Source: an uncultured delta proteobacterium
Lineage (GTDB): Bacteria > Desulfobacterota > Desulfobaccia > Desulfobaccales > 0-14-0-80-60-11
Assembly (NCBI GenBank): GCA_963709285.1
Contig: CAVPVR010000009.1
Coordinates: forward strand, 201,063-265,062
Reading direction: 5' to 3'
Length of the DNA: 64,000 nucleotides
Shown here: positions 43,701-63,408 of the stretch, in pieces
How the letters are laid out: every line of letters begins with the position of its first letter
Position numbering within the stretch: the first letter of the stretch is position 1
Notes under the pieces: model-generated
Databases searched by the model: none
Seen by the model: only the letters and a program-made list of their open reading frames with translations
Told to the model about the DNA's origin: nothing
Program-made: the position numbers and the translations under genes

Positions 43701-45620
43701 ATGGCGCTGGCACCGATAATTTTAGGAACTGCGGGTCATATTGATCACGGCAAAAGTTCTCTTATCAAGACCTTAACCGGCATCGACCCGGACCGCCTCA
43801 AGGAGGAAAAGCTCCGGGGCATCACCATCGAACTGGGCTTTGCCTCCCTCACTCTCCCCACCGGGCAGTTGCTGGGCATCGTGGATGTGCCTGGCCACGA
43901 ACGCTTTGTGCGTCACATGGTGGCCGGGGCCACGGGCATGGACCTGGTGGCCTTGGTCATCGCGGCGGACGAAGGGGTCATGCCCCAGACCCGGGAGCAC
44001 CTGGAAATCTGTGAGCTTCTCAAGGTCAAGCAGGGCCTGGTGGTTCTCACCAAGGCCGACCTGGTGGAGTCCGACTGGCTGGATCTGGTGGAGGAGGAAA
44101 TCCGGGAGGCCCTGGTGGGCACCTTCCTGGAAGGGGCTCCCATTGTGCGGTTTTCCGCGGTCACCGGGGAGGGCACGGAAACACTGCTGGGCACTCTGGG
44201 GGAGCTGGCGGCCCAGGTGCCCCCCAAACCCGCCAGCGGCATCTTTCGCCTGCCTGTGGACCGGGTTTTCACCATCAAAGGTTTCGGCACCGTGGTCACC
44301 GGCACGGCCATCACCGGCCGCCTCAAGGTAGGTGACGCGGTCATGGTGTATCCGCCGCTCTACAAGGCCCGGGTCCGGAGCCTGCAGATGCACGGGGCCT
44401 CAGTAGAGGAACTTTTGGCCGGCAGCCGAGCCGCAGTCAACCTCCAGGGCCTGGAAAAGGAAGAGATGGAGCGGGGCATGGTGGTGGCCACCCCCGGCGC
44501 CCTCATCCCCTCCCGCCGCCTGGACGTCTTTCTCGAGGTTCTGGAAAGCGCCCCCCGCCCCCTGAAGCACCGCCAGACGGTGCGCTTTCACACCGGCACC
44601 AGCGAGCGCTTGTCGGTGCCCTTGCTCCTGGATGCCGACGAAGTGCCCCCGGGGTCCTCGGGCTACGTGCAGTTTATCCTCCGGGATGCCGTGGCCGTGA
44701 AGCCCGGGGACCGCTTTGTCATCCGCAACCTCTCCCCGGCCGTCACCTGGGGCGGCGGCCAGATCCTCCACGTCAATCCAACCCGCCACAAACGCCACCA
44801 GGAAGGGGTCCTCTCTGGACTGCAGACCCTCGAACAAGGCGCCCCCGAAGAGCAGGTCCGGTTTTATCTGGAAGAGGCCGGCCCCGCCGGCCGCAGCCGT
44901 TCGGCCCTGGCGGCCATGCTCCCCTGGGAACCCACAGATTTAGCGAACCTATTAAATGCCCTGGTCCAAAGAGGCGAGGCCCTGCTCTACGACCCGGAAA
45001 ACCAGCGGTATATCCTCACGGATACAGCCCGGGCCTTGGAAGAGGAGATCCACCGGCATCTCAAGGCCTATCACCAGAAAAACCCCTTAAAGCCGGGCCT
45101 TTCCAAGGAAGAACTGCGCCGCAAGCTGCCGCCCCAAATGGAGGTGCGCCTCTTCAATGACCTGCTAGGTCGCCTGGCCCAGCAAAAGCAGGTGGCCCTG
45201 GAAAAAGACCTGGTGCGTCTGGCCAGCCACCGGGTGCAGTTGGCCACCGACCAGGAGGACGTGACCCGCCGGTTGGCAGCCCTTTACCAGCGCGGGCGAC
45301 TTTCTCCCCCCACCTTGAAGGAAGTGGAGGCGGCCCTCAAGCTTCCCCTGGCCAAACTCCAGCCCCTCCTCGCCGTCCTGGTGAACCAGGGGAGCCTGGT
45401 CAAGGTGAAAGAAGACCTCTACTTTCATACCGAGGCCGTGGCCCAACTCAAAGCCGCGTTGGTGGACTTCTTGAAGAAGAACGGGGAAATCTCCGTCCCG
45501 CAGTTTAAAGACCTGACCCAGACCTCCCGGAAATTTACCATTCCGCTCTTGGAACATTTCGACACCAACCGGGTGACGGTCCGGGTGGGGGAAGCCAGGC
45601 GCCTGCGAGAGGGAGTGTAA
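43701..45620 (+). CDS. selB: Selenocysteine-specific translation elongation factor
   Basis: 639 aa. [27 protein letters not shown] and TKADL G-domain motifs, followed by a long C-terminal winged-helix extension typical of SelB. Confidence 0.9.
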
Positions 45621-45982: not shown

Positions 45983-46489
45983 ATGGGAAAAGTTACCAAG
46001 AGTATCCCCCACCTTTCCAAGGAAGAAATTCAGGCAAAAATTAAAGCAACGGTGGGGTTTTGGCGAGTGCAAAAATGGCTGGTTATTTGGAATGCCCTGG
46101 TTGATCCTCGCTCTGCCGGGGAAATTGCTTTGCATACCGGACTTGCGGAGCAATCGGTTCATAATCTGATTTCCAGATATAATCGCTGGGGGCCGGAAGC
46201 GGTGGAGGGACCCGGGAAGGGTGGACGGCGCCGCTCCTATTTAAGCTGGGACGAAGAGACTGCCTTTATAGAATCATTCAGGCAGATGGCGCTTACCGGC
46301 CAGATTGTTACCGTAGCAGAAATCAAGGAGGCTTTGGAAAGACGGATCGGTCGAACAGTCCACAAGACCACCGTCTATCGGTTACTTAAACGGCAGGGTT
46401 GGCGGAAAGTGGTGCCCCGGCCGTTCCATGTCGATGCCGATAAAGAGGAGCAGGAGGCTTTTAAAAAAACTTCCCGAAATAATGGCTGA
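45983..46489 (+). CDS. IS630-family transposase, N-terminal HTH part (orfA)
   Basis: 168 aa. Helix-turn-helix regions and ...VYRLLKRQGWRKV. The ORF ends shortly after an A7 run (46463-46469). Confidence 0.85.
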   Translation: MGKVTKSIPHLSKEEIQAKIKATVGFWRVQKWLVIWNALVDPRSAGEIALHTGLAEQSVHNLISRYNRWGPEAVEGPGKGGRRRSYLSWDEETAFIESFRQMALTGQIVTVAEIKEALERRIGRTVHKTTVYRLLKRQGWRKVVPRPFHVDADKEEQEAFKKTSRNNG

Positions 46490-47042
46490 AAAACTGGCCG
46501 ACAGAGCCCCGGAAGATCATCGTCCGGTGTTACTCTTTGCTCAAGACGAGGGACGCTTTGGCCGCATCAGTGATGTCAGGCGCGCCTGGTCGCCTCTGGG
46601 GACGAGGCCGCAAGCGCCCCGGCAGGTTATTAGAACTTATCTCTATGTCTTCACAGCGGTGTGCCCGGCATTGGGGAGAATGACCTCCCTCATCTTGCCT
46701 TGGGCCAATACGGAGATGATGAATATCTTCTTGAGGCAGGTGGCGGAGGATTTTCCGGATTATTTTATCCTCATGCTGGTAGATCAGGCCGGGTGGCATA
46801 TCTCCCGGAGATTGGAGGTACCCGAAAATATTAGGCTGATCAAGTTGCCTCCGCGCAGCCCAGAGTTGAATCCTTCCGAACATATTTGGGAGGAGTTACG
46901 GGAGAAGAATTTTGCCAACAAGGCGTTAAGGGATCTTGATGAGGTAGAGGACAACCTCTGTCAGGGTCTGAACAATCTTGCCAAAGACCCGAAAAAACTT
47001 CGTTCGATGACAAACTTCCCCTACCTTAATATTACTTGTTAG
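46428..47042 (+). CDS. IS630-family transposase, DDE catalytic part (orfB)
   Basis: FAQDEGRFG, LVDQAGWH and PPRSPELNPSEHIWEELR form the DD(35)E triad context. It lies in the +1 frame relative to orfA; dropping one A from the A7 run fuses them as ...EAFKKLPEIMAEKLADR. Confidence 0.87.
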   Translation: MSMPIKRSRRLLKKLPEIMAEKLADRAPEDHRPVLLFAQDEGRFGRISDVRRAWSPLGTRPQAPRQVIRTYLYVFTAVCPALGRMTSLILPWANTEMMNIFLRQVAEDFPDYFILMLVDQAGWHISRRLEVPENIRLIKLPPRSPELNPSEHIWEELREKNFANKALRDLDEVEDNLCQGLNNLAKDPKKLRSMTNFPYLNITC

Positions 47043-47193
47043 ATTGCATCTTGGTATTATCCTCCCTCAGAGCCCGATCTAATAATAAATTCAGCTTTCC
47101 ATTTGCGCCATTCTGGCTGAACCAGATAAGTCTCTTATTTTCCTAATAATATATTACAAAAAACCGTGATTATTACGAACATATAGTCAAAAG

Positions 47194-47213
47194 TGACCAT
47201 ATCTAATTGGTCA
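47194..47213 (+). promoter_or_regulatory. 20-bp palindromic operator TGACCA-N8-TGGTCA, copy A
   Basis: TGACCATATCTAATTGGTCA, followed after exactly 10 nt by TAGAAT (47224-47229). Same architecture at 49081 and 56194. Confidence 0.7.
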
Positions 47214-47315
47214 ACTCGTTCTATAGAATTCCTTTCCTTCGTTCGTTAATATTTGTGCTTTAATTGATTCAAACCTGGATCTGATCATAGAGTTCTGCTC
47301 ACAAGCTGAGAACCT

Positions 47316-47426
47316 ATGAATGCTTATCTCGTGGCCGGTGGTATTTTCCAAGCTATTAACTTCCCAGTATCGACCTGGAAAATAGAAAAAAGTCAGCATG
47401 ACCATCACAGTGGAGAAAATAGATGA
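47316..47426 (+). CDS. 36-codon ORF translationally coupled to the radical SAM gene (candidate leader or precursor peptide)
   Basis: Encodes MNAYLVAGGIFQAINFPVSTWKIEKSQHDHHSGENR. TGA 47424-47426 overlaps ATG 47423. The first 11 residues and flanking DNA are conserved with the start of ORF 49201..49560. Too short for the ORF track. Confidence 0.45.
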   Translation: MNAYLVAGGIFQAINFPVSTWKIEKSQHDHHSGENR

Positions 47427-49015
47427 AGGCCCTGTTCATTTACCCTGAATTTCCGGAAACCTTCTGGAGTCTCCGGCATGCCATCAAGTTCCTCGGGGTC
47501 AAGGCTCTTGGTCCGCCCCTGGCTCTCCTCACCGTGGCCGCCATGCTGCCCCCGGATTGGGACAAGCAACTGGTGGACCTGAATGTGGAGCCGCTGACGG
47601 AGGAACACCTGGCCTGGGCTGACCTGGCTTTTGTCAGCGCCATGACCGTCCAGTTTCCCTCGGCGGACACCGTCGTCCAGCGCTGCCGGGCTGCGGGCGT
47701 CAAAGTCTGCGCCGGGGGAGTCCATTATAGCACCCCGGGGGCGCCGTTCGAGCCGGTGGATCACCTCTTCATCGGCGAAGCGGAAGAGGTCCTGCCAATC
47801 TTCCTGGCGGACCTGGCCCAGGGCCAGGCGTTGCCGGAATACCGGGCTTCCCGCTTTCCAAGTCTGGCCTGCTCGCCGGTGCCGGCCTGGGAGCTTCTTG
47901 ACCATTCTCATTATATGAACATGCTGGTCCAGGTGTGCCGGGGTTGTCCCCACGACTGCGACTTTTGCCACGTCATCGTGCAATATGGCCGCCACCCCCG
48001 TTACAAAGAACCGGACCAGGTCGTGGCCGAGCTCCAGGGGCTCTATGACTCAGGGTGGCGGAGGGATATTACCTTTGCCGACGACAATTTTATCTGTCAT
48101 CATGGCAAAGCCAAGGCCATCCTGCGAGCCGTGAGTCGCTGGCAAGCCGAACACGGCTACCCCTTCCTGTTCGTGGCCCAAGCCAGCCTCGAAGTAGTGG
48201 ACGATCCGGAGTTATTGCCTCTCATGGCCCAGGCGGGTTTTTCGGGGCTGTTCCTGGGGATCGAAACCCCAGACCCTGTTTCGCTAAAGGAATGTAATAA
48301 GCGCCAAAACCTGAACCGGGACCTGATGGACGCCATGCGGACCATACAGGCCCATGGCATTGAAGTCAGCGGCGGGTTCATCGTGGGCTTTGACTCGGAC
48401 TCCCCCGACGTCTTCGACCATCAGGCGGATTTTATCGAAGAAGCCGCCATCCCCACGGCCATGATCAATCTGCTGACCGCTCCCCCCGGCACCCGCCTGT
48501 ATCGGCGCTTGGAGTCAGAAGGACGCCTTCTGGGCGACAGTGATGGGGACACCACCATGAATGCTGGCTGCCTGAACTTCATACCCAAGATGGAGCGGGA
48601 GCGCTTGCTGGATGGTTACAAGACCCTCCTGAATCGGCTTTTTGCGCCCAAGCCGTTCTATCACCGAGTCCTTACCTTCCTGGGGCATTACCGCCCCAAC
48701 CCCCTCCTGCCGGCCCGCCCCCCCACCCACCGGGAAGTGCTGGCGGTTTTGAAAATCATCTTTGCCTTGGGCTTCAAAGAACCGGGCCGACGGGCCTTCT
48801 GGTCTTTCCTGGGGCGTCTCCTCTGGCGTCATCCCCAATGTTTCCCTCTCGGAATAACCATCGCTGTACAGGGGTTCCATTACCGCATGATAACCAACCG
48901 GTTCTGTGCGGCACCCTATGAACCGGCCCCTGGGATGCTCGCGGTGGCTAACCTCCAGAAAGAACCCTTTTCCCACCCAGACCAGCAACAAGAGTTAACC
49001 GAGGTCACCGCGTGA
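47423..49015 (+). CDS. B12-binding-domain radical SAM enzyme with DUF4070-like C-terminal region
   Basis: 530 aa. N-terminal Rossmann-like LALLTVAAMLPPDW...DLAFVSAM. Cluster VCRGCPHDCDFCHV. GLFLGIETPD. Long helical C-terminus. GGAG RBS at 47411. Confidence 0.82.
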   Translation: MKALFIYPEFPETFWSLRHAIKFLGVKALGPPLALLTVAAMLPPDWDKQLVDLNVEPLTEEHLAWADLAFVSAMTVQFPSADTVVQRCRAAGVKVCAGGVHYSTPGAPFEPVDHLFIGEAEEVLPIFLADLAQGQALPEYRASRFPSLACSPVPAWELLDHSHYMNMLVQVCRGCPHDCDFCHVIVQYGRHPRYKEPDQVVAELQGLYDSGWRRDITFADDNFICHHGKAKAILRAVSRWQAEHGYPFLFVAQASLEVVDDPELLPLMAQAGFSGLFLGIETPDPVSLKECNKRQNLNRDLMDAMRTIQAHGIEVSGGFIVGFDSDSPDVFDHQADFIEEAAIPTAMINLLTAPPGTRLYRRLESEGRLLGDSDGDTTMNAGCLNFIPKMERERLLDGYKTLLNRLFAPKPFYHRVLTFLGHYRPNPLLPARPPTHREVLAVLKIIFALGFKEPGRRAFWSFLGRLLWRHPQCFPLGITIAVQGFHYRMITNRFCAAPYEPAPGMLAVANLQKEPFSHPDQQQELTEVTA

Positions 49016-49080
49016 GAGTCTTAAGGTGATCCAGTGCCGGGAGGGACACCTTGTGATTCCTAAAATCATTTAGTCAAAAG

Positions 49081-49100
49081 TGACCATATCAAAATGGTCA
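49081..49100 (+). promoter_or_regulatory. 20-bp palindromic operator TGACCA-N8-TGGTCA, copy B
   Basis: TGACCATATCAAAATGGTCA, then 10 nt, then TAGAAT (49111-49116). Upstream of ORF 49201. Confidence 0.7.
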
Positions 49101-49200
49101 ACACGTCCCATAGAATTCCCTCCCTTTTTTTCCTCATAATAAGGCTCTTCTTTAGAACTCAAACCTGAGTTTGAATATCTGCTTCGAAAGTTGAGAACCT

Positions 49201-49560
49201 ATGACCACATATCTCGTGGCCGGCGGCATTTTCCCAGGCCGACAAGGTGAAGAGAGGTTCACTCTGGTGTGCCCGAGCTCAGAGGAACTGCCCTACGTTT
49301 TTGAAGACGGTGTGATGTCCTATTTCAAGCTGATATGGCAACACGCCCACCTATACCGGGTGGAGGACGATTACACTCTTGCCCTGAGGGCTTTTTCACC
49401 TGAAGCAATTCATTGGGGCGTAAAGGCACCTGAAAGGGTCACGCCTGACACAGACTTGCTGGAAAAGTTACGAGCCGTTCTGCAACCCTGCCAAACCGGT
49501 TTGAAACCGAATGGGACTAAGATTGTAAAATCAATAGGATCAGATCACTGTCTCGACTAG
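49201..49560 (+). CDS. Hypothetical protein sharing its N-terminus with the 36-codon ORF
   Basis: 119 aa. MTTYLVAGGIFPGRQGEERF... No family recognised. Same upstream cassette as at 47165-47350. Confidence 0.6.
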   Translation: MTTYLVAGGIFPGRQGEERFTLVCPSSEELPYVFEDGVMSYFKLIWQHAHLYRVEDDYTLALRAFSPEAIHWGVKAPERVTPDTDLLEKLRAVLQPCQTGLKPNGTKIVKSIGSDHCLD

Positions 49561-49778
49561 TAACTTATCAACCCGCTGGAAGTTCAACTGAGTCAATACC
49601 TGGCAACTCTTCTTGGTCTGAGCCTTAATCCAAATTCTTCCCTTAATTTTCTGCATCCCCTCCCCCCCATACCCTCCTCAGGATGAGACCTGGTTAGGCC
49701 AGCCAACAAAATATTTTCCATTTTTCAGAATTTGCACTACAGTTGGTAGAAGAGTACAAGGCTCGGAGAGGTTAAATT

Positions 49779-52700
49779 ATGGCCCAGAAAAAATCACCCC
49801 CACCAAAGACCCGCCAGGGAAAGAAACCTCAGAAAAAGACCATCGAGCCACGCCAGGAAAATCGCCGATCCTTCCCTGTCGTCGGCATCGGCGCTTCTGC
49901 CGGGGGCCTGGAGCCTCTGGAAGCCTTTTTCGCCAACATGCCCACTGATAGGCCGCCAGCCGAAGACATGGCTTTTGTGGTCATTCAGCATTTAAGCCCC
50001 AAACACAAAAGCATCATTGGGGAAATCCTCAAAAAAGACACTGAGATGCCCATCAAGGAAATTGGGGACGGCATGGAACTGGAGCCCCATACCATCTATT
50101 TCAACCCGCCTGCCAGAGATGTGGGCATCTACCGGGGGGTGTTTCATCTGGTGGAGCCCTCCGAGGCCCGTCACGTCCGCATGCCCATCGACTTCTTTTT
50201 CCGGTCGTTGGCCCAGGACCTGGAAGAGAAGGCCATCTGTATCGTACTCTCCGGCACCGGCAGCGACGGCACCCTGGGGCTGGAGGCTGTCAAAGGCTCG
50301 GGCGGCATGACCATGGCCCAGGCAGAGGAGCAGGCCAAGTACCCGTTCATGCCCCGGAGCGCCATCGACACCGGCCTGGTGGACTTTGTCCTGCCCGTGG
50401 AGCAGATGCCTGAAGAGCTCATCCGCTACTTGCAACACCCCTATCTCCTGGGCCAGGAAAAAAAGCTCCCCGCGGACAAGCACTATCAGAGCTTTCTGCA
50501 TAAGATCCTCATGCTGGTGCGGGCCAGTACCAAGCACGATTTCAGTCATTACAAACAAACCACTATCCGCCGGCGCATTGGCCGCCGTATGGCGGTCCAC
50601 AAGATCGAGGACATCGCCGCCTACTTTCGCTATCTCCAGCAAAATCCCTCAGAGATCCAGACCCTTTTTAAAGACCTGGTCATCTGCGTCACCAGCTTCT
50701 TCCGGGACCCCGAGGCCTTCAAGGCTCTGGAAACCAAGGTGATCCCCAATATCCTGGCCCACAAATCCCTAAACCAGCCTCTTCGGGTCTGGGTGCCCGG
50801 TTGCGGCACCGGAGAAGAGGCCCTGTCCATCGCTATCCTCTTTCAGGAGGCCATGGAAAAGACCGGCAAACACCTTAATGTGCAAATTTTTGCCACGGAT
50901 ATCGACACGGATGCCATCGACAAGGCCCGCCTGGGCGAATACCCGGAAAGCATTGCCGCGGACATCAACCCCGAGCGCCTGAAAAGATCCTTCGTTAGAA
51001 AGGACGGCCGTTACAAAATCAGGCAGGAAATCCGGGAAATGGTAGTGTATGCCGCGCAAAATGTCATCGGTGACCCGCCCTTCTCCCGCCTGGACCTCAT
51101 CAGTTGCCGGAACGTCCTCATTTACTTCGATAATGATTTGCAAAAACAGATCCTGCCCTTATTCCACTTCACCTTAAACCCCAATGGATTTCTTTTTTTG
51201 GGCTCTTCCGAGACCATCGGCGGCGCTGCGGACCTGTTTGCCACGGTGGACTCGAAATGCAAGATTTTCCAGCGCAAGGGCCCGGTGCACCGCCGTTTAT
51301 CGGAATACCCCGCCATGACGCTACCTGCGGCCGTGGTCCGGCCTTACCACAAAGAGGAGTCTCCCCGGGAAGTCAACGTTCGCACCCTCATGGAGAGAAT
51401 CGTTTTAGAAGAATATGCGCCCCCTACCATCCTCATCAACAACCGCTACGACGTGCTCTATCTTCAGGGGAACACTGACAAATTTCTAGGCATGCCCAAA
51501 GGGGAACCCAGCTACAATCTCTTTAATCTGGCCCACGAAGACCTGCGTCCCAAGCTGCTCACCGTCCTGCACCAGGCCGTAAGCGAAAAAAGGGCGATCA
51601 AGACCGAGTCTATTCCCTTCCGGCAGCCCGAGGGGAGAATAGGGTACCTGGATTTGATTGTGCGGCCCCTGGGCACGCCAGGTACGGCCAACCTTTTTCT
51701 TGTGGTGTTTGAGGAATTGCCCCTCCCCCAGCCACCCCAAACCACCAAGGGCAAAGGCAAAGCCCAGGCCTTGCCGGAGGAGGAGTCCCGAGTCGCCATT
51801 TTGGAACACGAACTCCAGGCCACCAAGGAATACCTCCAGACTACGGTGGAGGAGCTGGAGGCCAGTAACGAAGAGCTCAAGTCCACCAATGAAGAACTTC
51901 AATCCACCAACGAGGAATTGCAAAGCACCAATGAAGAACTGGAGACCGCCAAGGAAGAGCTCCAGTCCACCAACGAGGAACTGGTGACGGTGAATTCCGA
52001 GCTGAACAACAAGATTGAAGAGCTCATCGAGGTCAACAATGACATCAACAACCTGCTGGCCAGCACCGAGATTGGCACCCTCTTCCTGGACCGCAACCTG
52101 CTCATCAAACGCTTCACGCCGGCCGCCACCAAGCTCTTCAACCTGATCCCTGCTGACGTGGGCCGTTCCATCAAGGACATCGCCCCCAAGACGGAATATG
52201 AAAATCTGTGGGAGGACGCTGAACAGGTGCTGCAAACCCTGCAGGTCAAGGAAATGGAGGTGAAGAGTATATCGGGGGAAACTTATGTCGCCCGCCTCTT
52301 GCCCTACCGCATTCGGGAAAATGTCATCGACGGGGTGGTGCTCACCTTTATCAACATATCGGTCCAGCACCTCCTGAGCATGGCCAAGGATTTCGCCGAA
52401 AGCATCGTGGACACCGTGCGGGATCCCCTCTTGGTCCTGGACGGCGATTTGAAGGTGATCTCAGCCAACCAGACCTTTTACCAGACGTTCCACCACGCCA
52501 AGCAAGAAACGGAAAACCAGCATATTTACAAGCTGGGGGACAGCCAGTGGGACATCCCCAAGCTGAAGGAGCTCCTGGAGGAGATCATTCCCCAGAACAC
52601 TTCATTCAAAGATTTTGAGGTGGAGCATGACTTTCCCAAGCTCGGCCATAAGACCATGCTCCTGAATGCCCGCCGCCTCCCGGCTGCGGGCAAGCGTCCC

Positions 52701-52817
52701 AGCATGATTCTCCTGGCCATCGAGGACGTTACGGACACCAAGAAAAAAGAACGTCAATATCAGGAAACCATCGCCCGGCTGGAAAAGCAGCTGGAGAAGT
52801 TGAAGGGCAGGAAATAA
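49779..52817 (+). CDS. CheB-methylesterase / CheR-methyltransferase fusion with coiled coil and C-terminal PAS domains
   Basis: 1012 aa. VVGIGASAGGLEPLEAFF and LSGTGSDGTLG (CheB-like). RVWVPGCGTGEEALSIAI and CRNVLIYF (CheR-like). STNEELQ heptad repeats. PAS-like C-terminus. Confidence 0.88.
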   Translation: MAQKKSPPPKTRQGKKPQKKTIEPRQENRRSFPVVGIGASAGGLEPLEAFFANMPTDRPPAEDMAFVVIQHLSPKHKSIIGEILKKDTEMPIKEIGDGMELEPHTIYFNPPARDVGIYRGVFHLVEPSEARHVRMPIDFFFRSLAQDLEEKAICIVLSGTGSDGTLGLEAVKGSGGMTMAQAEEQAKYPFMPRSAIDTGLVDFVLPVEQMPEELIRYLQHPYLLGQEKKLPADKHYQSFLHKILMLVRASTKHDFSHYKQTTIRRRIGRRMAVHKIEDIAAYFRYLQQNPSEIQTLFKDLVICVTSFFRDPEAFKALETKVIPNILAHKSLNQPLRVWVPGCGTGEEALSIAILFQEAMEKTGKHLNVQIFATDIDTDAIDKARLGEYPESIAADINPERLKRSFVRKDGRYKIRQEIREMVVYAAQNVIGDPPFSRLDLISCRNVLIYFDNDLQKQILPLFHFTLNPNGFLFLGSSETIGGAADLFATVDSKCKIFQRKGPVHRRLSEYPAMTLPAAVVRPYHKEESPREVNVRTLMERIVLEEYAPPTILINNRYDVLYLQGNTDKFLGMPKGEPSYNLFNLAHEDLRPKLLTVLHQAVSEKRAIKTESIPFRQPEGRIGYLDLIVRPLGTPGTANLFLVVFEELPLPQPPQTTKGKGKAQALPEEESRVAILEHELQATKEYLQTTVEELEASNEELKSTNEELQSTNEELQSTNEELETAKEELQSTNEELVTVNSELNNKIEELIEVNNDINNLLASTEIGTLFLDRNLLIKRFTPAATKLFNLIPADVGRSIKDIAPKTEYENLWEDAEQVLQTLQVKEMEVKSISGETYVARLLPYRIRENVIDGVVLTFINISVQHLLSMAKDFAESIVDTVRDPLLVLDGDLKVISANQTFYQTFHHAKQETENQHIYKLGDSQWDIPKLKELLEEIIPQNTSFKDFEVEHDFPKLGHKTMLLNARRLPAAGKRPSMILLAIEDVTDTKKKERQYQETIARLEKQLEKLKGRK
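51861..51986 (+). repeat. Six tandem 21-nt units encoding the heptad [ST][TN][NK]EEL[QKE] coiled coil
   Basis: ASNEELK STNEELQ STNEELQ STNEELE TAKEELQ STNEELV. This is a coding repeat inside the CheB-CheR gene. Confidence 0.9.
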
Positions 52818-52873
52818 CAAACGGCAAGAAACATAAAGAACGACGTGTAATTCTAAAATTCAGGTACTTTATT

Positions 52874-52935
52874 GTCATTCTGAGGGAGCTAAGCGACCGA
52901 AGCATCTAGACCCTTCGCTGCGCTCAGGGTGACAA
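52874..52935. repeat. Hairpin element related to MITE family A core (variant)
   Basis: GTCATTCTGAGGGAGCTAAGCGACCGAAGCATCTAGACCCTTCGCTGCGCTCAGGGTGAC. Confidence 0.75.
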
Positions 52936-52974
52936 GAAAAACGGTTTTGAAATAATTTGTAGCAGGACAGACCC

Positions 52975-55524
52975 ATGACCGACCCCAAGGACTTTCCCCC
53001 CGAGTTTACTGACCTGCGCCGGCAGGCCGAAGGACGGCTCGAAGCGGAGACCATCATCCCGGAAGACCTCTCTCCTACCGAGGCCGCCCGACTCATTCAC
53101 GAACTCCGGGTGCACCAGATCGAACTGGAGTTGCAAAATGAAGAACTCCGGCAGGCCCAGGCCCACCTGGCCGAATCCCGGGATAAGTACGCCGACCTGT
53201 ATGACTTCTCGCCGGTGGGCTACCTCACTTTGGACGAAGGCGGCAAGATCGTGGAGGCCAACCTTACCGCCACGACTTTCTTGGGGGTGGAGCGCAGCCG
53301 CCTCCTGGGCCGCCTCTTTCCCCTGTTACTGGTGGAATGGGACCGTCGGGTCTTTCGTCAGTTACTGAACAACGGCTTTAATCAGGGGGAGCGGCGGGGA
53401 GAGTTCCATCTCCAGGACGGCAACGGGGATATGCGAACCATGCTCCTGGACATTCTCTTTCTCTGGGACGCGGAGGGCCGGGAGCGGCGCCGCCTTGCCA
53501 TGACCGACATCACCGAGCTCAAGCGAGCTCAGGAGGAATTGCGGCTTCACAAGGAAGACTTGGAGGAGACGGTGGCCGAGAGGACCTCAGAACTGCTTCA
53601 GGTCAATGAGCAGCTCCGGGAGGTCAACGAAAAGCTCGAGGCCCTGTTCCAGGCCGCTCCCCTGGCCATAGGGGAGTTTGACGCCCAGGGCCGGATAGTG
53701 AACATCAATCCGGCCTCAGAGCGCATCTTCGGCTGGCCCCTGGAAGAAGTCCAGGGCCGCCTGCCCCCTTCCATCCCCCCGGAGGATGCGGAGGAGTCTC
53801 TGAAGGTTTTGCAGCAGGTGCTCCAGGGGAAAGCCTTCATCGGTGTCGAACTCAGGGCTCAGCGGCAGGACGGCACCCTCTTCGACCTCAGCTTCTCGGC
53901 GGCCCCCCGGCATGACCAGGAGGGGAATATCCAGGGCTTCATCGGCGTGGCCGAAGATATCACGCGCCGCAAACAGGCCGAAGAGGCCCTGAAGACCCAG
54001 GCCAGAGTATTAGAGAGCATGGCCGAAGGGGTCAGCGTCACCGACCACCATGGCAATATCCTCCATACCAACCCGGCCTTTGACACCATGTTCGGCTATG
54101 AACCGGGGGAGCTGCTGGGCCGGCACAGCGGCATATTGAATGCCTATCCCCCGGTAGAAAACTTCGGCATCGTCAAAGACATTCTCCACCAGGTGAACAC
54201 CAGGGGGGCCTGGTTCGGGGAGTTTCACAATTGTAAAAAAGACGGCACCTACTTTTTCACTGCAGCCCGCATCAGCGCTCTAGAAGTGGGCGGCAAAAAG
54301 CTCTTCATTTCCGTGCAGGAGGACATCACCGAGCGCAAGCGGGCCGAGGAGGAGCTGGCCCGGCAAAGGGAGCTTTTACAAGGGATCATCGACAACATCC
54401 CGGTTATGCTGGCGATCTATGACCCAAATCTGAAAGCTTTCCGCTGCAATCAGGAATTTCGTAAGGTGCTTGGCTGGTCGGAGGAAGACATGCTCGTGGA
54501 GGATCCCATGGAGCTGTTCTACCCCGATCCACAGTACCGGGAGCAGGTGCGGGAATACATGCAGTCCCTGGAGCCGGGATGGCGGGATTTCCAGGTGAGC
54601 GCCAAAGATGGCAGCAGCATAGAGAGCACCTGGGCCAACATCCGCCTCACTGACGACACGCAAATCGGCATCGGCATCGACATCCGAGAGCGAAAACAAG
54701 CCGAGGAGGCCCTGCACCGGGCCCACCATGAGCTGGAGGACCGGGTGGCGGAGCGCACCGCGGCCCTGAGATTGGCCAACGAGCAATTGCTCTGGGAGAT
54801 GACGGAGCGGCAGGAAGCTGAGAACAGGCTGCGGGAGAGCGAGAGGAAGCTGCGCTACCTGGCTGAACAACTCCTCACTGCCCAGGAGGACGAGCGCAAG
54901 CGGCTGGCCGCGGAACTGCATGATGAGATGGGTCATGCCCTCTTGACCTTGAAACTCACCTTGAGTACCATAGCCAAGGAACTGCTGCCGGAGCAGGAGA
55001 GCATCAAGCAGGAGATCCGCGATAAACTTGCCTACATCAATGAAGTGATTGAGGAAGTTCGGCGTCTGTATCACTATCTGGTTCCGGGCGACGTGGAGGA
55101 TTTAGGTCTGACGAAAGCCCTTCACAACTTGATCGAAGATTTTGCCCTATATCAACACCTGGTATCCTGGAAAGTGGACCTGCCTGACCTCGACCGGCTT
55201 TTTTCCCCGCCGGTGCAAACCATCATTTACCGAATTATCCAGGAAGCCTTGACGAACATCGGCAAACATGCAAATCCTTCAAACGTAACCGTTGCCGCCA
55301 AGAGAGCGGAGCATCAGATGAACTTCACCGTTCATGACAACGGCAAGGGCTTCAATGTGGAAGAGGTGCTGGACCTGCGCAGCTCTGCCCAGGGATTAGG
55401 GCTGGCAGCCATGGAGGAGCGCCTGAATATGGTGGGGGGCTCTTTTACCGTTTGGAGCCGGGAAGGAGAAGGCACCAAGCTCTCTATCGCCATTCCCACG
55501 TTGCCGGAGGAAGAAAGAGCGTGA
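52975..55524 (+). CDS. Multi-PAS sensor histidine kinase, HisKA_3 (NarX/LiaS-like) type
   Basis: 849 aa. At least four PAS/PAC segments separated by coiled coils. H-box RLAAELHDEMGHALLTLKL. ATPase motifs QEALTNIGKHA, DNGKGF and GLGLAAMEERL. Confidence 0.9.
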   Translation: MTDPKDFPPEFTDLRRQAEGRLEAETIIPEDLSPTEAARLIHELRVHQIELELQNEELRQAQAHLAESRDKYADLYDFSPVGYLTLDEGGKIVEANLTATTFLGVERSRLLGRLFPLLLVEWDRRVFRQLLNNGFNQGERRGEFHLQDGNGDMRTMLLDILFLWDAEGRERRRLAMTDITELKRAQEELRLHKEDLEETVAERTSELLQVNEQLREVNEKLEALFQAAPLAIGEFDAQGRIVNINPASERIFGWPLEEVQGRLPPSIPPEDAEESLKVLQQVLQGKAFIGVELRAQRQDGTLFDLSFSAAPRHDQEGNIQGFIGVAEDITRRKQAEEALKTQARVLESMAEGVSVTDHHGNILHTNPAFDTMFGYEPGELLGRHSGILNAYPPVENFGIVKDILHQVNTRGAWFGEFHNCKKDGTYFFTAARISALEVGGKKLFISVQEDITERKRAEEELARQRELLQGIIDNIPVMLAIYDPNLKAFRCNQEFRKVLGWSEEDMLVEDPMELFYPDPQYREQVREYMQSLEPGWRDFQVSAKDGSSIESTWANIRLTDDTQIGIGIDIRERKQAEEALHRAHHELEDRVAERTAALRLANEQLLWEMTERQEAENRLRESERKLRYLAEQLLTAQEDERKRLAAELHDEMGHALLTLKLTLSTIAKELLPEQESIKQEIRDKLAYINEVIEEVRRLYHYLVPGDVEDLGLTKALHNLIEDFALYQHLVSWKVDLPDLDRLFSPPVQTIIYRIIQEALTNIGKHANPSNVTVAAKRAEHQMNFTVHDNGKGFNVEEVLDLRSSAQGLGLAAMEERLNMVGGSFTVWSREGEGTKLSIAIPTLPEEERA

Positions 55525-56159
55525 CACCTTATACTATTGTGCTGGCCGACGATCACGCGTTATTCCGACAAGGGGTTAAAAAAATTATTGAAGAAGTGGA
55601 CGGTCTGCAGGTGGTGGGAGAGGCCAAAGACGGCCTCGAACTCCTGGAGCTTCTGAAAGAAGTGAACCCTGCCCTGGTCATCCTCGATATCTCCATGCCC
55701 AACCTGCGGGGCCTGGAAGCAGCCCGGGAAATTAAGGGGCGCTATCCCCAAATCAAGATCCTCCTCCTCACCATGCACAAGAAGAAAGATTTCCTCCAGC
55801 AAGGCGTCGAGGCCGGAGTTGATGGCTTTCTGGTGAAAGAAGACGCAGATATTGAACTTTTGCAAGCCGTCCAGGCCATTAGGAACGGGGGAAAATTCTA
55901 CTCACCTCTCCTTTCCACCAGACTGGCGGACCTGGCTCTCTCTAAGGGGCAAACCGATCCTCTCACCAAGCGGGAAAAAGAGATCGCCAAGCTCCTGGCT
56001 GAAGGAAAAAGCAGCAAAGAGATTGCCCGACTCTTGTACATCAGCATTTATACGGTGCGCCGGCACCGGGACAACATCATGAGAAAATTGGAACTCAAGG
56101 GCCTGGCAGATCTGGTGCGCTACGCCATGGAACAAGGATATACCTCAGGCAACCCCTGA
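55521..56159 (+). CDS. NarL/FixJ (LuxR-type HTH) response regulator
   Basis: GTG 55521 overlaps the kinase stop (GTGA). IVLADDHALFRQG, LVILDISMPNLRG and LTMH. C-terminal LTKREKEIAKLLAEGKSSKEIARLLYISIYTVRRHRDNIMRKL. Confidence 0.9.
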   Translation: MTPYTIVLADDHALFRQGVKKIIEEVDGLQVVGEAKDGLELLELLKEVNPALVILDISMPNLRGLEAAREIKGRYPQIKILLLTMHKKKDFLQQGVEAGVDGFLVKEDADIELLQAVQAIRNGGKFYSPLLSTRLADLALSKGQTDPLTKREKEIAKLLAEGKSSKEIARLLYISIYTVRRHRDNIMRKLELKGLADLVRYAMEQGYTSGNP

Positions 56160-56193
56160 TTACTCCCCGCCGTTTTGGTCAAATAGTCACATT

Positions 56194-56213
56194 TGACCAT
56201 CTCCAAATGGTCA
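56194..56213 (+). promoter_or_regulatory. 20-bp palindromic operator TGACCA-N8-TGGTCA, copy C
   Basis: TGACCATCTCCAAATGGTCA, then 10 nt, then TAGACT (56224-56229). Additional GGTCA/AGTCA half-sites lie just upstream (56177-56190). It sits 35 nt after the LuxR-type regulator stop. Confidence 0.7.
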
Positions 56214-56381
56214 CCTCTGAGCATAGACTCTCCCGTTAACCTGATGGAAAATAGCGCCACCTCGTAAGGTCACTCCTGAAAAGGAGAGGCCCCCTGCCTT
56301 TGACCCTTACCTGCAAAGGGAAGGGGAAAATCCCGCAGGATAATTTGTTACTGGTTTTTGAACAGGATGTGGAGGGGTGCC

Positions 56382-57470
56382 ATGCTAGCGGAAGAAATCC
56401 TCATGGTCAATGACAGTTCACTGCTCCTCAAGATGATGGGGGGCCTGTTAGAAAGCAAGGGCTACCACATCGACCTGACTGATTCCCCCGAGGAAGCCTT
56501 GGAGATGCTGAGCACCAAGCATTTCATGCTGGTGGTGATGAAACTGAATGGCCAGCAAACTGACCGCCTGGCAGTGATGCACATGGTCAAAGAGTTGAAT
56601 GGCGGGACCAAGCTGATCATCATGGGGGAGTCGACGTACCTGCCCGCGGAAATCTTTGAAATCGAGGCGGATGATTATATTCTCCTGCCGTGCCGCATTG
56701 CGGATATCTGGCGGCGTCTACTCTCAACCCTGGAAGCGGCTCCCTCCAAACCGGTATTGTCCCGGGAAGACGGCCTGACTCATCCGGTGAACCGGCGAGT
56801 CATCAACAATCTGGGACTCATGTTCCATGACATACGAGGCCTTCTCACCTCCATCAGCGAGGGCCTGAAAATCCTGCACCACAGAACCTACGGGAGGCTG
56901 GAAAGCGAGGTGGAGACGATTTTCCAGGAAACCTTTCGAAGAAGCCGCACCTTGATCAGTATGGCCGAGGAATTCTTGCAAAAGTTTCAGATCCAGAATG
57001 CCGTTCCGTCATCAACGAACCTCATGGATCTCCAAGAGGATGTGGTGGGTCCAATCCTGGAGGAGCTCAAGGATGATTTACGAAGAAACTGCATCACCCT
57101 GGATAATCGGCTTTCCTTGCTGCCGCCGAAGAAACAAATTATCCGGGGAGACCGGGTAGCCTTGAAAAGCGTCTTCCGCAACCTTCTACATAACGCCATA
57201 ACTTACGGGGATCACCGTTGCACCATTTCCATTGATATGGATGAAGCCCCCACGCATTTTCGGCTCCAGGTGCAAAATACCGGGGCTCATTTCCCCCCGG
57301 GTCGGCGGGCCATGCTTTTTGCTGGCCTGAAGCGGGCTCGAGGTGATGGCCAGGGAATGGGTCTGGGTCTCTATCTCGGGAGAGAAATTATGAGATGTCA
57401 TGGAGGGGATATCTCTTTCGAGACCGGCCAACAGGGCCCGAATTTTATCATTACCCTGCCCCGAGCCTAA
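56382..57470 (+). CDS. Histidine kinase with N-terminal degenerate (pseudo-)receiver domain
   Basis: The ORF opens at TTG 56358; ATG 56382 follows GGAGGGG. It has a receiver-like fold, but the acceptor position reads VVMKLNG (Lys, not Asp) and KP is replaced by LP. H-box MFHDIRGLLTSI, N-box FRNLLHNAITYG and G2 GQGMGLGLYLGREI. Confidence 0.8.
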   Translation: MLAEEILMVNDSSLLLKMMGGLLESKGYHIDLTDSPEEALEMLSTKHFMLVVMKLNGQQTDRLAVMHMVKELNGGTKLIIMGESTYLPAEIFEIEADDYILLPCRIADIWRRLLSTLEAAPSKPVLSREDGLTHPVNRRVINNLGLMFHDIRGLLTSISEGLKILHHRTYGRLESEVETIFQETFRRSRTLISMAEEFLQKFQIQNAVPSSTNLMDLQEDVVGPILEELKDDLRRNCITLDNRLSLLPPKKQIIRGDRVALKSVFRNLLHNAITYGDHRCTISIDMDEAPTHFRLQVQNTGAHFPPGRRAMLFAGLKRARGDGQGMGLGLYLGREIMRCHGGDISFETGQQGPNFIITLPRA

Positions 57471-57529
57471 TCATGGTGGCATAAAAATGGCCTGCCTGGG
57501 TGGCCTGCCGCCATGGACCGATCGAAGTG

Positions 57530-58306
57530 ATGGCCGATTTTCCAATTCCACTGAGCTTCATTCTCAGTGAATCCATGGAGAAAGTGGTGAGTATCTCTGA
57601 AAAGCCGACAGCATTGACCAAATACTTTCAGACAAAACTGGCAGTGGTTGAGGTAAAAGACGGGGAAACCCAGGAAGAGGCCTGGCGACGCCACCTGACC
57701 TCCATCCCGAACTATGCCAACGCCCACATAAAAAATTTTCATTATCCGGCTAAAGATTCCCTGAATAAGGCGAAGGGCCATCCGGAGTCTTTCTATTCAG
57801 GTAACGAGGAGAAAAAAGTTATGCTTGAGGACTTGATCAAGAAAGTGCAGGGAGGTTACCAGATAGACGGCCTAGACTTGCTGCGAGCCAACTGTGGTTG
57901 CGGCGGTTTGACCGGCCCGGGTGGTTATGGGGTAGGGGACTGCTGCCAGACCTACTCCACCGTGAGACAAGAGAACCACACGGTGGCTTTTTTTGCCAAG
58001 GCCACCACTCCCAGCACTAAAAATAACTACGAGTGGGGCTACCGGGTCAAAAAGGGACCGGTGGAAGTGGACGTGCTGGTCTATGATACCCGGAATCCCA
58101 AGGAGTTTACCTTTGGGGGAAAATATCCCCCTCCCGTTTCTGAGTGGCAAGCTCGCGGTTGGGAAATCCTGTCCCAGTTTGAAAGACCACTGGCAGGGAC
58201 CGGGGTGAAATTGCCTGAATGGTGCCAGAGTCCGGTGGATGCCTGCGTCCGTCCGGATAAAGGCCTGGAATCACCTCACGGGGATCTGCACCGCAAGGGA
58301 AGGTAA
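57530..58306 (+). CDS. Hypothetical protein with a Cys cluster, no recognisable family
   Basis: The ORF opens at GTG 57500; ATG candidates at 57530 and 57575. Contains NCGCGGLTGPGGYGVGDCCQTYS and a later C..C pair (WCQSPVDAC). Directly downstream of the pseudo-receiver kinase. Confidence 0.55.
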   Translation: MADFPIPLSFILSESMEKVVSISEKPTALTKYFQTKLAVVEVKDGETQEEAWRRHLTSIPNYANAHIKNFHYPAKDSLNKAKGHPESFYSGNEEKKVMLEDLIKKVQGGYQIDGLDLLRANCGCGGLTGPGGYGVGDCCQTYSTVRQENHTVAFFAKATTPSTKNNYEWGYRVKKGPVEVDVLVYDTRNPKEFTFGGKYPPPVSEWQARGWEILSQFERPLAGTGVKLPEWCQSPVDACVRPDKGLESPHGDLHRKGR

Positions 58307-59038
58307 ACTCGGTAGTAAACCTCGGTCGGTTCAGAGTTGGAGAGAACCGTCAACCACCAGAGCTGAAAAAATGCATTCTGGAAATCTAGAAACCGAACAC
58401 TAGGCCAAATGCAGAGAAATCTCCAAGCGGGTCCTTTGGAATATCGACCAAGATGTCATCCGGAGGCGGTAGGTCGATTTTTCCCCAAAATTCTTCCCCG
58501 ACGGTATCTCCCAAATCGACAAGCTTAATGGCCGTCAGCTTCGGCGCAAAAGGACGAGCGGCATATTCCGCCGCAGGGTGGAATAAAATATGGAGAATAG
58601 CTGCTATTCTTAGTAACTTTCAAGCCGCTGAAAATTCCACTTATCCATGAAATATCAACACCTTTTGGTCAAGCTATCTCCCGGTGATGCCCCCAGCCAT
58701 TCCTCAAGTCTTCTCTCCCTGCACCTACAATTTCCACCACCCTAGCCCGGATAATTCTCTTGGTTGTCAAAAGCTCGGTGGCATAGGCTTTCCAGCCTGT
58801 GCAAAAAACAGTCGGTTTTTTCGGGCTGGCCAATTATTCTAAATATTTCATCACGTTGTCTTACATTTTTAACAATTCATGAATAAAGCGGGCTAGGTAA
58901 TAAAGCCAGAGGTGCTCGGCCCGGTCCCTCCTCGAAATAAAAAAAGTTACCGCAGACTGGGGAAATTTATATAATGAGCTATCCTCTGTGTTTCCTAATT
59001 TGGATAAAAATGAGTGGATTTGTCCGTCTGTTGAATAA

Positions 59039-60256
59039 ATGCTTGCGGTAACTTCTCACATCACCCCCCCGGCGCGACGCGGTCAGGCCAAGTCTCGCAA
59101 ATTTCAGTCTTTCTTGTCTTCTGAAAGTCCTTTTGCCCTCCTGGTCTTTTTGCTTCTGTGCTTTGCCAGTATCTTTCTGCCAGCCTGTTCCGAAGGGAAA
59201 TCCGACCTGCCCCTCAAGGCCCCGCCGGTTCCCGTGACGGTGGGCACTGTCACCCAAAAGACCGTGCCGGTGATGGTCAAAGCCATCGGCAACGTGGAGG
59301 CCTATACCTCGGTATCCGTAAAAGCCCGGGTGGGAGGGGAACTGAAACAGGTTCACTTTCAGGAAGGCCAGGAAGTCAAAAAGGGTGACCTGCTCTTTAC
59401 CATCGACCCCCGGCCTTATGAAGCAAATTTACAAGAGGCCCAGGCCAAGCTGGCCCGGGACCGGGCTCTTTTGAAGAAGGCTCAAGATGACGCCCAGCGC
59501 TATACCCGCTTGATCAAAGACGATCTCATCAGCCGGGAGCAGTATGATCAGGTCATAGCCAATTCACAGGCCCTGGGAGCCACCGTGCAAGCGGATGAAG
59601 CAGCCGCGACCTATGCCCGTTTGCAAGTTGGGTACTGCTTTATTTATTCTCCCGTCTCGGGCCGCACCGGCAGTCTCCTGATCAACCAGGGCAATCTCAT
59701 CAAAGCCGAGGACGAAAAAAATCCCATTATAATCATCCACCAGATTCAGCCCATCTATGTCAGCTTTGCAGTCCCGGAAAAATATTTCCCGGAAATCAAA
59801 GCAGCCATGGAAAAGGGGACCCTGCCGGTGTCCGCGGCCATTGCCGGGGACGAGCCCCAACCGGTCCAGGGAAAACTCACCTTCATAGATAACCAGGTGG
59901 ACCGCACCACCGGCACCGTTCGAATGAAGGGCACGTTTAACAACTCTGAAAAACGCCTCTGGCCCGGCCAATTTGTCGATGCATCTGTCGAGCTGTCATC
60001 CCAGCCCAATGCCTTGGTGGTCCCCGCTGAAGCCTTGCAGACCGGGCAGGGCGAGCAGTTCGTCTTCGTGGTCAAGCCCGATCAGACGGTGGACTATCGG
60101 GCCATTCAGGTGGAGCGCATCATAAACGGCGAGGCGGTGGTGAAGAAAGGGGTGGCCGTGGGTGAGCAGGTGGTCACCGACGGCCAGTTGCGGTTGGTTC
60201 CCGGGGCCCGGGTGGAGATTAAACCACAGCCCCCGGCCAAAGACAAGTCTTCATGA
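59039..60256 (+). CDS. RND efflux periplasmic adaptor (membrane fusion protein)
   Basis: 405 aa. Lipoprotein-like LLCFASIFLPAC. VKARVGGELKQVHFQEGQEVKKGDLLFTIDPRPYEA, coiled-coil hairpin, SPVSGRTG and VPAEAL. Confidence 0.88.
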   Translation: MLAVTSHITPPARRGQAKSRKFQSFLSSESPFALLVFLLLCFASIFLPACSEGKSDLPLKAPPVPVTVGTVTQKTVPVMVKAIGNVEAYTSVSVKARVGGELKQVHFQEGQEVKKGDLLFTIDPRPYEANLQEAQAKLARDRALLKKAQDDAQRYTRLIKDDLISREQYDQVIANSQALGATVQADEAAATYARLQVGYCFIYSPVSGRTGSLLINQGNLIKAEDEKNPIIIIHQIQPIYVSFAVPEKYFPEIKAAMEKGTLPVSAAIAGDEPQPVQGKLTFIDNQVDRTTGTVRMKGTFNNSEKRLWPGQFVDASVELSSQPNALVVPAEALQTGQGEQFVFVVKPDQTVDYRAIQVERIINGEAVVKKGVAVGEQVVTDGQLRLVPGARVEIKPQPPAKDKSS

Positions 60257-63200: not shown

Positions 63201-63408
63201 CCAACCTCTGGGTCTGGCCGTAGTGGGGGGCCTCATGTTTTCCCAGCTCATCACCCTCTATATCACGCCGGTCATTTACACGTATCTGGAATACTCCCAG
63301 GAAAAGATCAAGGACCTCTTGAAAATAAAGAAAGCTATTCCCCACCCCTCCTTAGCTCCAACAGAAATTGCCAGTGAACCCGAGACCTTCCGCAAAAGTC
63401 AAACCTGA
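60253..63408 (+). pseudogene. RND efflux permease (AcrB/MdtC-like), spread over three frames by three single-base insertions (pseudogene or sequence error)
   Basis: Homology is continuous across ORFs 60253..62640, 62378..62686, 62628..63086 and 62977..63408 (FIRRPVMTTLVMAAILLFG ... [21 protein letters not shown] ... [29 protein letters not shown]). Switches occur near 62534-62541, 62629-62637 and 62980-62984. Confidence 0.9.

Follow-up and report, generated by a model that had tools for sequence, protein, structure and literature searches.

What is the function of a 20-bp palindrome, TGACCA-N8-TGGTCA, that stands before several genes in a 64,000-nucleotide stretch of contig CAVPVR010000009.1 from an uncultured delta proteobacterium (called the window below)? 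A sequence-only reading had proposed that it marks a local regulon, with the palindrome straddling the -35 position of three promoters and a neighbouring LuxR-type regulator as the obvious candidate to bind it. Judged by its conservation, the element is a genuine cis-regulatory motif in front of the genes named in that reading. We consider it probable that the palindromes are the central part of a three-heptamer operator located upstream of a weak sigma-70-type promoter, and that the adjacent response regulator, once phosphorylated, binds this operator and activates transcription.

The composite element and its conservation

The palindrome occurs exactly three times in the window, each time on the + strand (47194-47213, 49081-49100 and 56194-56213, here copies A, B and C). 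Dinucleotide shuffles gave a mean of 0.01 matches, and none of 100 shuffles reached three. When two mismatches were allowed, the further matches were scattered, intragenic and without common flanks. Exactly 10 nt separate each palindrome from a hexamer, which reads TAGAAT (47224-47229), TAGAAT (49111-49116) or TAGACT (56224-56229). The earlier description of three palindromes at a fixed distance from a hexamer was fully confirmed. Copy C had also been placed correctly just past the stop codon of the regulator gene (at 56159), although the distance to its start is 34 nt, not 35. Two GGTCA-type half-sites that had been described as lacking the dyad (58663-58672 and 58764-58773) indeed reach less than 14 bits against the motif matrix and lie outside the element.

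Alignment of the three regions revealed a larger unit. They share a 47-bp core, ATAGTCA-N4-TGACCAT-N6-(A/T)TGGTCA-N9-ATAGA(A/C)T, which is made up of three ATRGTCA heptamers (direct, inverted and direct), with starts 11 and 13 bp apart, and a fourth element containing ATAG. The palindrome corresponds to heptamers 2 and 3. It is real, but it is two of three conserved heptamers (or two of four, if ATAGAC is counted) rather than the whole motif. The three operators are as follows.

47183..47229, + strand: composite operator of site A, 59.7 bits; heptamers ATAGTCA (47183-47189), TGACCAT (47194-47200) and TTGGTCA (47207-47213), then ATAGAAT (47223-47229)
49070..49116, + strand: composite operator of site B, 59.6 bits; heptamers TTAGTCA (49070-49076), TGACCAT (49081-49087) and ATGGTCA (49094-49100), then ATAGAAT (49110-49116)
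56183..56229, + strand: composite operator of site C, 60.6 bits; heptamers ATAGTCA (56183-56189), TGACCAT (56194-56200) and ATGGTCA (56207-56213), then ATAGACT (56223-56229)

Sites A and B are related by descent. The segments 47166-47352 and 49053-49237 are 74% identical, and the similarity spans the operator, the 5' untranslated region (5'UTR), the ribosome-binding region and the first 12 codons; by this similarity A and B are an old duplication of about 190 bp. The window therefore holds two independent sites, not three, and the earlier figure stands as a count of copies but not of independent occurrences. Copy C, by contrast, aligns with A and B only in the 47-bp core and the -10.

47166..47352, + strand: duplicated block A (promoter, 5'UTR and first 12 codons), matching 49053-49237
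49201..49560, + strand: 119-aa protein of a conserved family of about 99 aa, ancestral owner of the A/B-type promoter

To follow the element in other genomes, we collected 26 metagenome loci by homology to the 119-aa protein; the motif played no part in the choice. The composite, with the same spacing, lies about 110-150 nt upstream of the gene in 10 of the 26 (L001, L002, L003, L005, L010, L011, L012, L015, L019 and L023). Nine of these copies are complete; the one in L010 is cut by the contig end. The gene order in these loci runs truB-rpsO-pnp, an M16 peptidase gene and then the gene of the 99-aa family.

A degenerate 36-bit pattern derived from the footprint sites was run over 596 Gb of species-representative genomes and gave 23 matches; on a uniform-composition estimate, chance alone would give about 17. 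Fifteen of the 23 fall in metagenome-assembled genomes (MAGs) of Desulfobacterota or Thermodesulfobacteriota and score 42-62 bits, with two or three sites in several genomes, whereas the eight matches in Clostridia, spirochaetes, an archaeon and others reach only 15-32 bits. Columns that the search pattern had left free (A1, C6, T12, G13, A31 and the three bases past ATAG) are conserved only in the Desulfobacterota-type group.

Altogether we count 30 sites with the composite, some of them in other Desulfobaccales and Thermodesulfobacteriota genomes, and orthologues of site C are present in L027, L034, L039, L042 and L050-L052. Every site faces a co-directional downstream gene. Across genomes the core has been kept while the flanks have diverged, and both the orientation and the distance to the gene are maintained. 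ATAG(A/C)NT after the third heptamer is invariant across sites. The perfect 6-bp arms of the palindrome are a local trait; the core common to the genomes is ACYAT-N4-A-N-W-TRGT, together with the additional upstream heptamer. The regulon extends through the lineage and is not confined to the locus: in other genomes the motif stands before the 99-aa gene, by pnp and the M16 peptidase gene, far from two-component systems.

One further half-site, TTGGTCA at 56175-56181, lies one base 5' of heptamer 1 of site C. The orthologues of that site have only a weak ..TCA-N-ATAGTCA there (TTGATCA in L051, CGGTTCA in L052).

Promoter geometry

Where does the element sit in relation to the promoter? We aligned the 29 sites of at least 40 bits and scanned offsets 5 to 39 downstream of TAGNNT for a hexamer with A at position 2 and T at position 6. 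Exactly 17 nt past TAGNNT, both bases of a -10 hexamer are present in 27 of the 29 sites, and nAnAAT in 19; at all other offsets in this range the count is 0-8. The hexamers include TAATAT, CAAAAT, GAAAAT, TAGAAT, CACAAT and similar sequences. Site B has a spacer of 18 nt.

47247..47252, + strand: predicted -10 of promoter A, TAATAT, 17 nt past TAGAAT
49135..49140, + strand: predicted -10 of promoter B, CATAAT, after the 18-nt spacer
56247..56252, + strand: predicted -10 of promoter C, GAAAAT, 17 nt past TAGACT

This regularity implies that TAGNNT sits at -35 and not, as had been read from the window, at -10. TAGNNT is mostly TAGACT or TAGACC, and TAGACN agrees with TTGACA at four of six positions. 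The 17-nt spacing falls within the 16-18 bp that separate -35 and -10 in sigma-70-type promoters; the transcription start is inferred from it. If the -10 is placed at -12 to -7, the heptamers fall at about -76 to -70, -65 to -59 and -52 to -46, and the centre of the palindrome at about -55.5. The palindrome would thus lie upstream of the -35, in an activator-type position, instead of straddling it. An arrangement in which repeated sites precede a weak -35 and a modest -10 is typical of activator-dependent promoters. ATAG is more invariant than a plain -35 needs, and it may form part of a fourth, degenerate heptamer (ATAGAC as compared with ATAGTC) contacted by the regulator. ATAGAC at -35 may even act as a fourth regulator half-site that replaces the sigma contact with the -35.

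Two other views of the element have to be weighed at this point. In the geometry of the sequence-only reading, TAGAAT or TAGACT is the -10, the centre of the palindrome falls at about -32.5 and the regulator is a repressor or a class-II-like activator. TAGAAT does agree with TATAAT at five of six positions, and its 10-nt distance from the palindrome is invariant. No canonical -35 is found 17 nt upstream of it. However, the -10-like hexamer that recurs 17 nt past TAGNNT, and at no other offset, is left unexplained, and elsewhere the supposed -10 is often TAGCCT, TAGACC or TAGCCC, which are poor -10s; TAGACN, as noted, agrees with TTGACA at four of six positions. We regard this arrangement as quite improbable. 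Very improbable indeed is the view that the copies are passive repeats, spread by duplication or as a small mobile repeat, or are terminator hairpins, and have no operator function. The duplication of A and B, the IS630 element that adjoins block A, the position of B and C shortly past stop codons and the listing of the palindromes as weak minus-strand hairpins in a simple scan would all fit it. But passive copying would not be expected to leave C matching A and B in nothing beyond the 47-bp core and the -10, nor to maintain orientation and distance to the downstream gene while the flanks diverge between genomes; a hairpin, for its part, leaves the third heptamer and the -35/-10 spacing unexplained, and the + strand has no T-run.

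Several other classes of element were tried and rejected. As an intrinsic terminator the palindrome would have a 6-bp stem with three GC pairs and no T-run on the + strand. A MerR-type operator has its dyad within a spacer of 19-20 bp; here the spacer measures 17 bp, with the dyad upstream of the -35. A sigma-54 reading (TGG..N..GC) would need a GC at a set distance, where none is found, and columns 32-40 show no conservation, while the AAC/CGT-type elements of an extracytoplasmic function (ECF) sigma reading are not kept in copy C. The 5'UTRs gave no Rfam match to an RNA element at gathering score, and there are no tRNAs in the window.

The candidate regulator

Which protein might read the operator? 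The genes around site C are the following.

55521..56159, + strand: NarL/FixJ-type response regulator (receiver, REC, and GerE helix-turn-helix, HTH), candidate binder of the motif
52975..55524, + strand: PAS-rich HisKA_3 histidine kinase (HisKA_3 and HATPase_c), presumed partner of the regulator
56382..57470, + strand: pseudo-receiver and HATPase kinase (Pfam), with Lys in place of the phospho-acceptor Asp (LVVMKLNG, read from the sequence); conserved regulon member
57500..58306, + strand: 268-aa Cys-cluster protein (p268), conserved downstream of the pseudo-receiver kinase

Pfam finds both a receiver (Response_reg, 8.8e-27) and a GerE HTH (1.7e-18) in the regulator, and all 11 sequences compared keep D10, D11, D56 and K106 of the canonical Asp pocket. 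The nearest solved relatives are DesR, VraR and NarL (best PDB match 4ldz, E 1.3e-32); no NCBIfam equivalog cut-off was reached, including those of NarL and NarP. The orthologue group consists of proteins of 212 aa that are 70-98% identical and abundant in sediment metagenomes. The adjacent HisKA_3 kinase gene overlaps the start of the regulator gene by 4 nt, and the pairing is repeated in L027, L034, L039, L050 and L052; the kinases have many PAS and GAF domains, in numbers that differ between genomes. A sigma-70-like match with an upstream TG (GTGACA-16-AATAAT, 52929-52956) is found just before the kinase start, and the pair may therefore have its own promoter apart from site B.

The regulator gene is linked to the motif well beyond the window. 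The synteny of regulator gene, motif and pseudo-receiver kinase holds in at least eight genomes, and among the pattern matches the order kinase, regulator (72-82% identical), motif, pseudo-receiver kinase and p268 recurs in L027, L034, L039/L029 and L042. We also started from the regulator alone, picking loci L050, L051 and L052 (85, 82 and 79% identical). Each of the three has exactly one high-scoring site, of 44-50 bits, between the regulator and pseudo-receiver kinase genes, in a spacer whose remainder has diverged. Elsewhere the site adjoins homologues of genes from the cluster in the window: it lies divergent from the CheBR gene in L045 and L048 and by the start of a kinase gene in L046. 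No DNA-binding protein other than the regulator recurs by the sites.

Ten orthologues have essentially the same recognition helix, YIS(I/V)xTVRRHR(D/A)N(I/V)M. A regulator paralogue of 54% identity, found in L054 (L057 has a closer relative), carries the helix TVNAHRSNIKKKL and is linked to CheBR-HK1. It adjoins operons of a 113-aa protein gene (p113) and a radical SAM gene that carry a variant motif, ATAGTTA-N4-TGACTAG..AATA(A/C)TCC. This covariation of helix and motif, although seen in few genomes, is suggestive. The NarL/FixJ-type regulator remains the best candidate to bind the motif, as had been proposed, and its most likely binder; synteny and the regulator-first result support that candidacy.

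In the mechanism that we envisage, the regulator, phosphorylated and partnered with kinase 52975-55524, would bind as one or two dimers. These would lie upstream of the poor -35 element, possibly touching it, and activate transcription from a weak sigma-70-type promoter with ATAG(A/C)NT at -35 and an nAnAAT -10 17 bp downstream. Within the window the targets would be the 119-aa gene (with possible read-through into CheB/CheR, the kinase and the regulator), the radical SAM gene, and the pair of pseudo-receiver kinase and 268-aa Cys protein. Such a mechanism, with a response regulator acting on an upstream repeat, is conventional.

Both the binder and the direction of its effect (activation rather than repression) are inferred, and a real operator could instead be bound by a transcription factor encoded elsewhere, with site C merely regulating the pseudo-receiver kinase operon. 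The motif-bearing 99-aa genes, which lie in housekeeping neighbourhoods without a regulator nearby, would fit this alternative, as would L037, where the motif, the pseudo-receiver kinase and p268 have no regulator in 4.6 kb upstream, and the heptamer spacings, which are unlike the 7-2-7 of NarL. It is countered by the regulator being the only recurring DNA-binding protein by the sites, by the three out of three loci in the regulator-first test and by a helix that is invariant with the canonical motif and different with the variant one; the 119-aa protein, for its part, shows no DNA-binding fold. We think a factor encoded elsewhere rather unlikely. Activation by the adjacent regulator nevertheless has several points against it. 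The spacings are 7-4-7 and 7-6-7, and no two-component system or regulator is found near the motif-bearing 99-aa gene in the pnp/M16 peptidase contigs. An invariant G such as that of TAGNNT is unusual in an ordinary -35 or -10. Many columns of the matrix were fixed by the search pattern, so that the scan sites overstate conservation there, and some orthologous C-type sites have been kept by descent and are not independent. Finally, the public sequencing runs that hold the locus are DNA from estuary and marine sediment metagenomes, with zero RNA runs.

Related systems offer partial parallels. DesK-DesR of Bacillus subtilis likewise joins a HisKA_3 kinase to a NarL-type regulator, and 4ldz is the closest solved structure. 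DesR-P binds an inverted repeat and an adjacent site upstream of the -35 of a single promoter. DesK, however, is a membrane thermosensor, whereas the sensor here is a soluble multi-PAS protein, several operons are concerned and the operator sequence is unrelated. The lux box of the quorum-sensing regulators LuxR/TraR is also a dyad of about 20 bp read by a GerE-type HTH, but these proteins have an autoinducer-binding domain instead of a receiver and their box lies near -42.5, compared with about -55.5 predicted here, and the system does not belong to that class. NarL binds heptamers preferably as 7-2-7 dyads, TACYYMT-N2-AKRRGTA, and activates from upstream sites (PMC4549865). NarL/NarP of E. 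coli share with the present system the REC and GerE HTH, the HisKA_3 kinase, the use of inverted and single heptamers and the upstream sites; the heptamers differ in sequence (TACYYMT versus ATRGTCA) as well as in spacing, and the sites here are not NarL 7-2-7 sites. DevR/DosR of Mycobacterium tuberculosis binds closely packed boxes cooperatively, and its start-proximal site overlaps the -35 (PMC3029386). It resembles our case in its NarL-type regulator, its 20-bp dyad and its multiple sites, with the ATAGAC element here at -35 (the cooperativity is known for DevR); its motif is unrelated in sequence and has another half-site spacing, and the regulator is a distant homologue (3c3w, E 1.8e-21). 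A literature search for the motif or for Desulfobacca NarL regulators found no paper describing either the regulator or the motif, only primer coincidences.

Proposed regulon content and history of the locus

The same regulon appears, by sequence comparison, to recur across Desulfobaccales-like genomes. Its conserved targets are the gene of the 99-aa family, the pseudo-receiver kinase with p268, and the p113-radical SAM operon, which in L056 has a canonical site of 41.7 bits. Targets in other genomes comprise a secreted Gly-rich protein, a 157-aa protein, coiled-coil lipoproteins and a large secreted protein; none of these further proteins has an informative Pfam family, and the 268-aa Cys-cluster protein has no family match. 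The output genes are all without known function, and the motif therefore ties them into one testable response and gives a search matrix for the annotation of MAGs. More generally, an operator, a promoter architecture and a core target set can be proposed for a widespread but uncharacterised system of a PAS kinase and a NarL-type regulator, which occurs in uncultured sediment Desulfobaccales and Thermodesulfobacteriota.

The 99-aa family has 129 matches, in Desulfobaccales-type metagenome contigs, with a conserved N-terminus, MxxY(L/F)VAGGIF, and a further conserved stretch, AHLYRVEDDYTL. The 119-aa member in the window has no Pfam or NCBIfam match, and its AlphaFold model (predicted local distance difference test score, pLDDT, 74) has no PDB fold match at E<=0.001; the model is small and mixed beta/alpha, mainly beta with short helices. 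The protein was considered as an autoregulator and rejected, since neither the model and the PDB nor Pfam/NCBIfam gave it a DNA-binding fold. L008 has two tandem paralogues of the family (953-1234 and 1619-1927).

The remaining genes that bear on the history of the locus are these.

45983..47042, + strand: IS630-type transposase (overlapping HTH and DDE_3 open reading frames (ORFs), Pfam), directly upstream of block A
47316..47426, + strand: 36-aa ORF; codons 1-12, MNAYLVAGGIFQ, duplicate those of the 119-aa gene; overlaps the radical SAM start
47423..49015, + strand: B12-binding radical SAM protein with DUF4070 (Pfam), regulon member
49779..52817, + strand: CheB-CheR-PAS fusion protein (Pfam), co-directional with the 119-aa gene and the kinase
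L053 5175-5519, L056 5200-5541 and L057 7045-7389: 113/114-aa Cys-containing protein, preceding radical SAM orthologues

The radical SAM gene had been taken to follow a peptide gene and to form a unit with it. This did not hold: the 36-aa ORF, which begins with MNAYLVAGGIFQ, reproduces only 12 codons from the start of the 119-aa gene and is therefore a truncated copy, probably a gene fragment or a leader ORF. Nor can it be regarded as a demonstrated precursor of a ribosomally synthesized and post-translationally modified peptide (RiPP), since it is not co-conserved with the enzyme. Radical SAM orthologues (75-89% identical) have a 113/114-aa gene before them in L053, L056 and L057; L054 and L055 lack such an ORF. 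Elsewhere the 113-aa gene stands behind a canonical or variant motif, and no trace of it was found in the window. The 113/114-aa protein has no Pfam match and a conserved stretch, …FSEFDGYCExLxRNGCISYP…; it could be the substrate or the partner of the radical SAM enzyme. An exact-sequence look-up of the radical SAM protein of the window returned no match.

The kinase of the window is a mosaic. Over residues 1-582 it shares 61% identity with the CheBR-linked kinase of L045. In the catalytic core (residues 615-846) the identity is 66-69% with the kinases that accompany the pseudo-receiver kinase in L050 and L052, but only 29% with the CheBR-linked kinase of L054, which suggests that two paralogous two-component loci have been joined. 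The contig of P0124, a regulator with 91% identity, has the same gene order as the window. The absence of the 113-aa gene, the presence of IS630 next door and the promoter of the 119-aa type transplanted to the radical SAM gene together suggest that two ancestral loci merged and that the radical SAM gene was kept in the regulon through the duplicated promoter. The window would then illustrate how a gene can retain its place in a regulon by promoter duplication after rearrangement.

These observations can be combined into a fuller history, which we put forward as doubtful. Two paralogous two-component systems would read variants of one ancestral heptamer operator, RR2 reading three copies of ATRGTCA and RR1, with its altered helix, ATAGTTA-N4-TGACTAG..AATAAT. 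In the lineage of the window the loci would have fused, leaving a mosaic kinase and no RR1 in the cluster, and the radical SAM operon would have been retained in the regulon by gaining, beside an IS630 element, an RR2-type promoter copied from the 119-aa gene. If true, this would be a natural example of regulon rewiring via promoter transplantation.

Some smaller features of the window and its relatives may be added. The IS630 transposase is split into an HTH ORF (45983-46489) and a DDE_3 ORF (46428-47042) that overlap by about 60 nt, which looks like a programmed or accidental frameshift, and in L057 a DDE_3 ORF also lies upstream of the p113-radical SAM pair. An RND efflux pump gene (60253-63408), after a membrane-fusion protein gene (59039-60256), is broken into three ORFs in different frames (60253-62640, 62628-63086 and 62977-63408); it may be a pseudogene, or the frameshifts may be assembly errors. 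A GTPase of 639 aa is encoded at 43701-45620; with its GHIDHGKS start and a tail that is long and winged-helix-like, it looks, on a reading of its sequence, like the selenocysteine elongation factor SelB.

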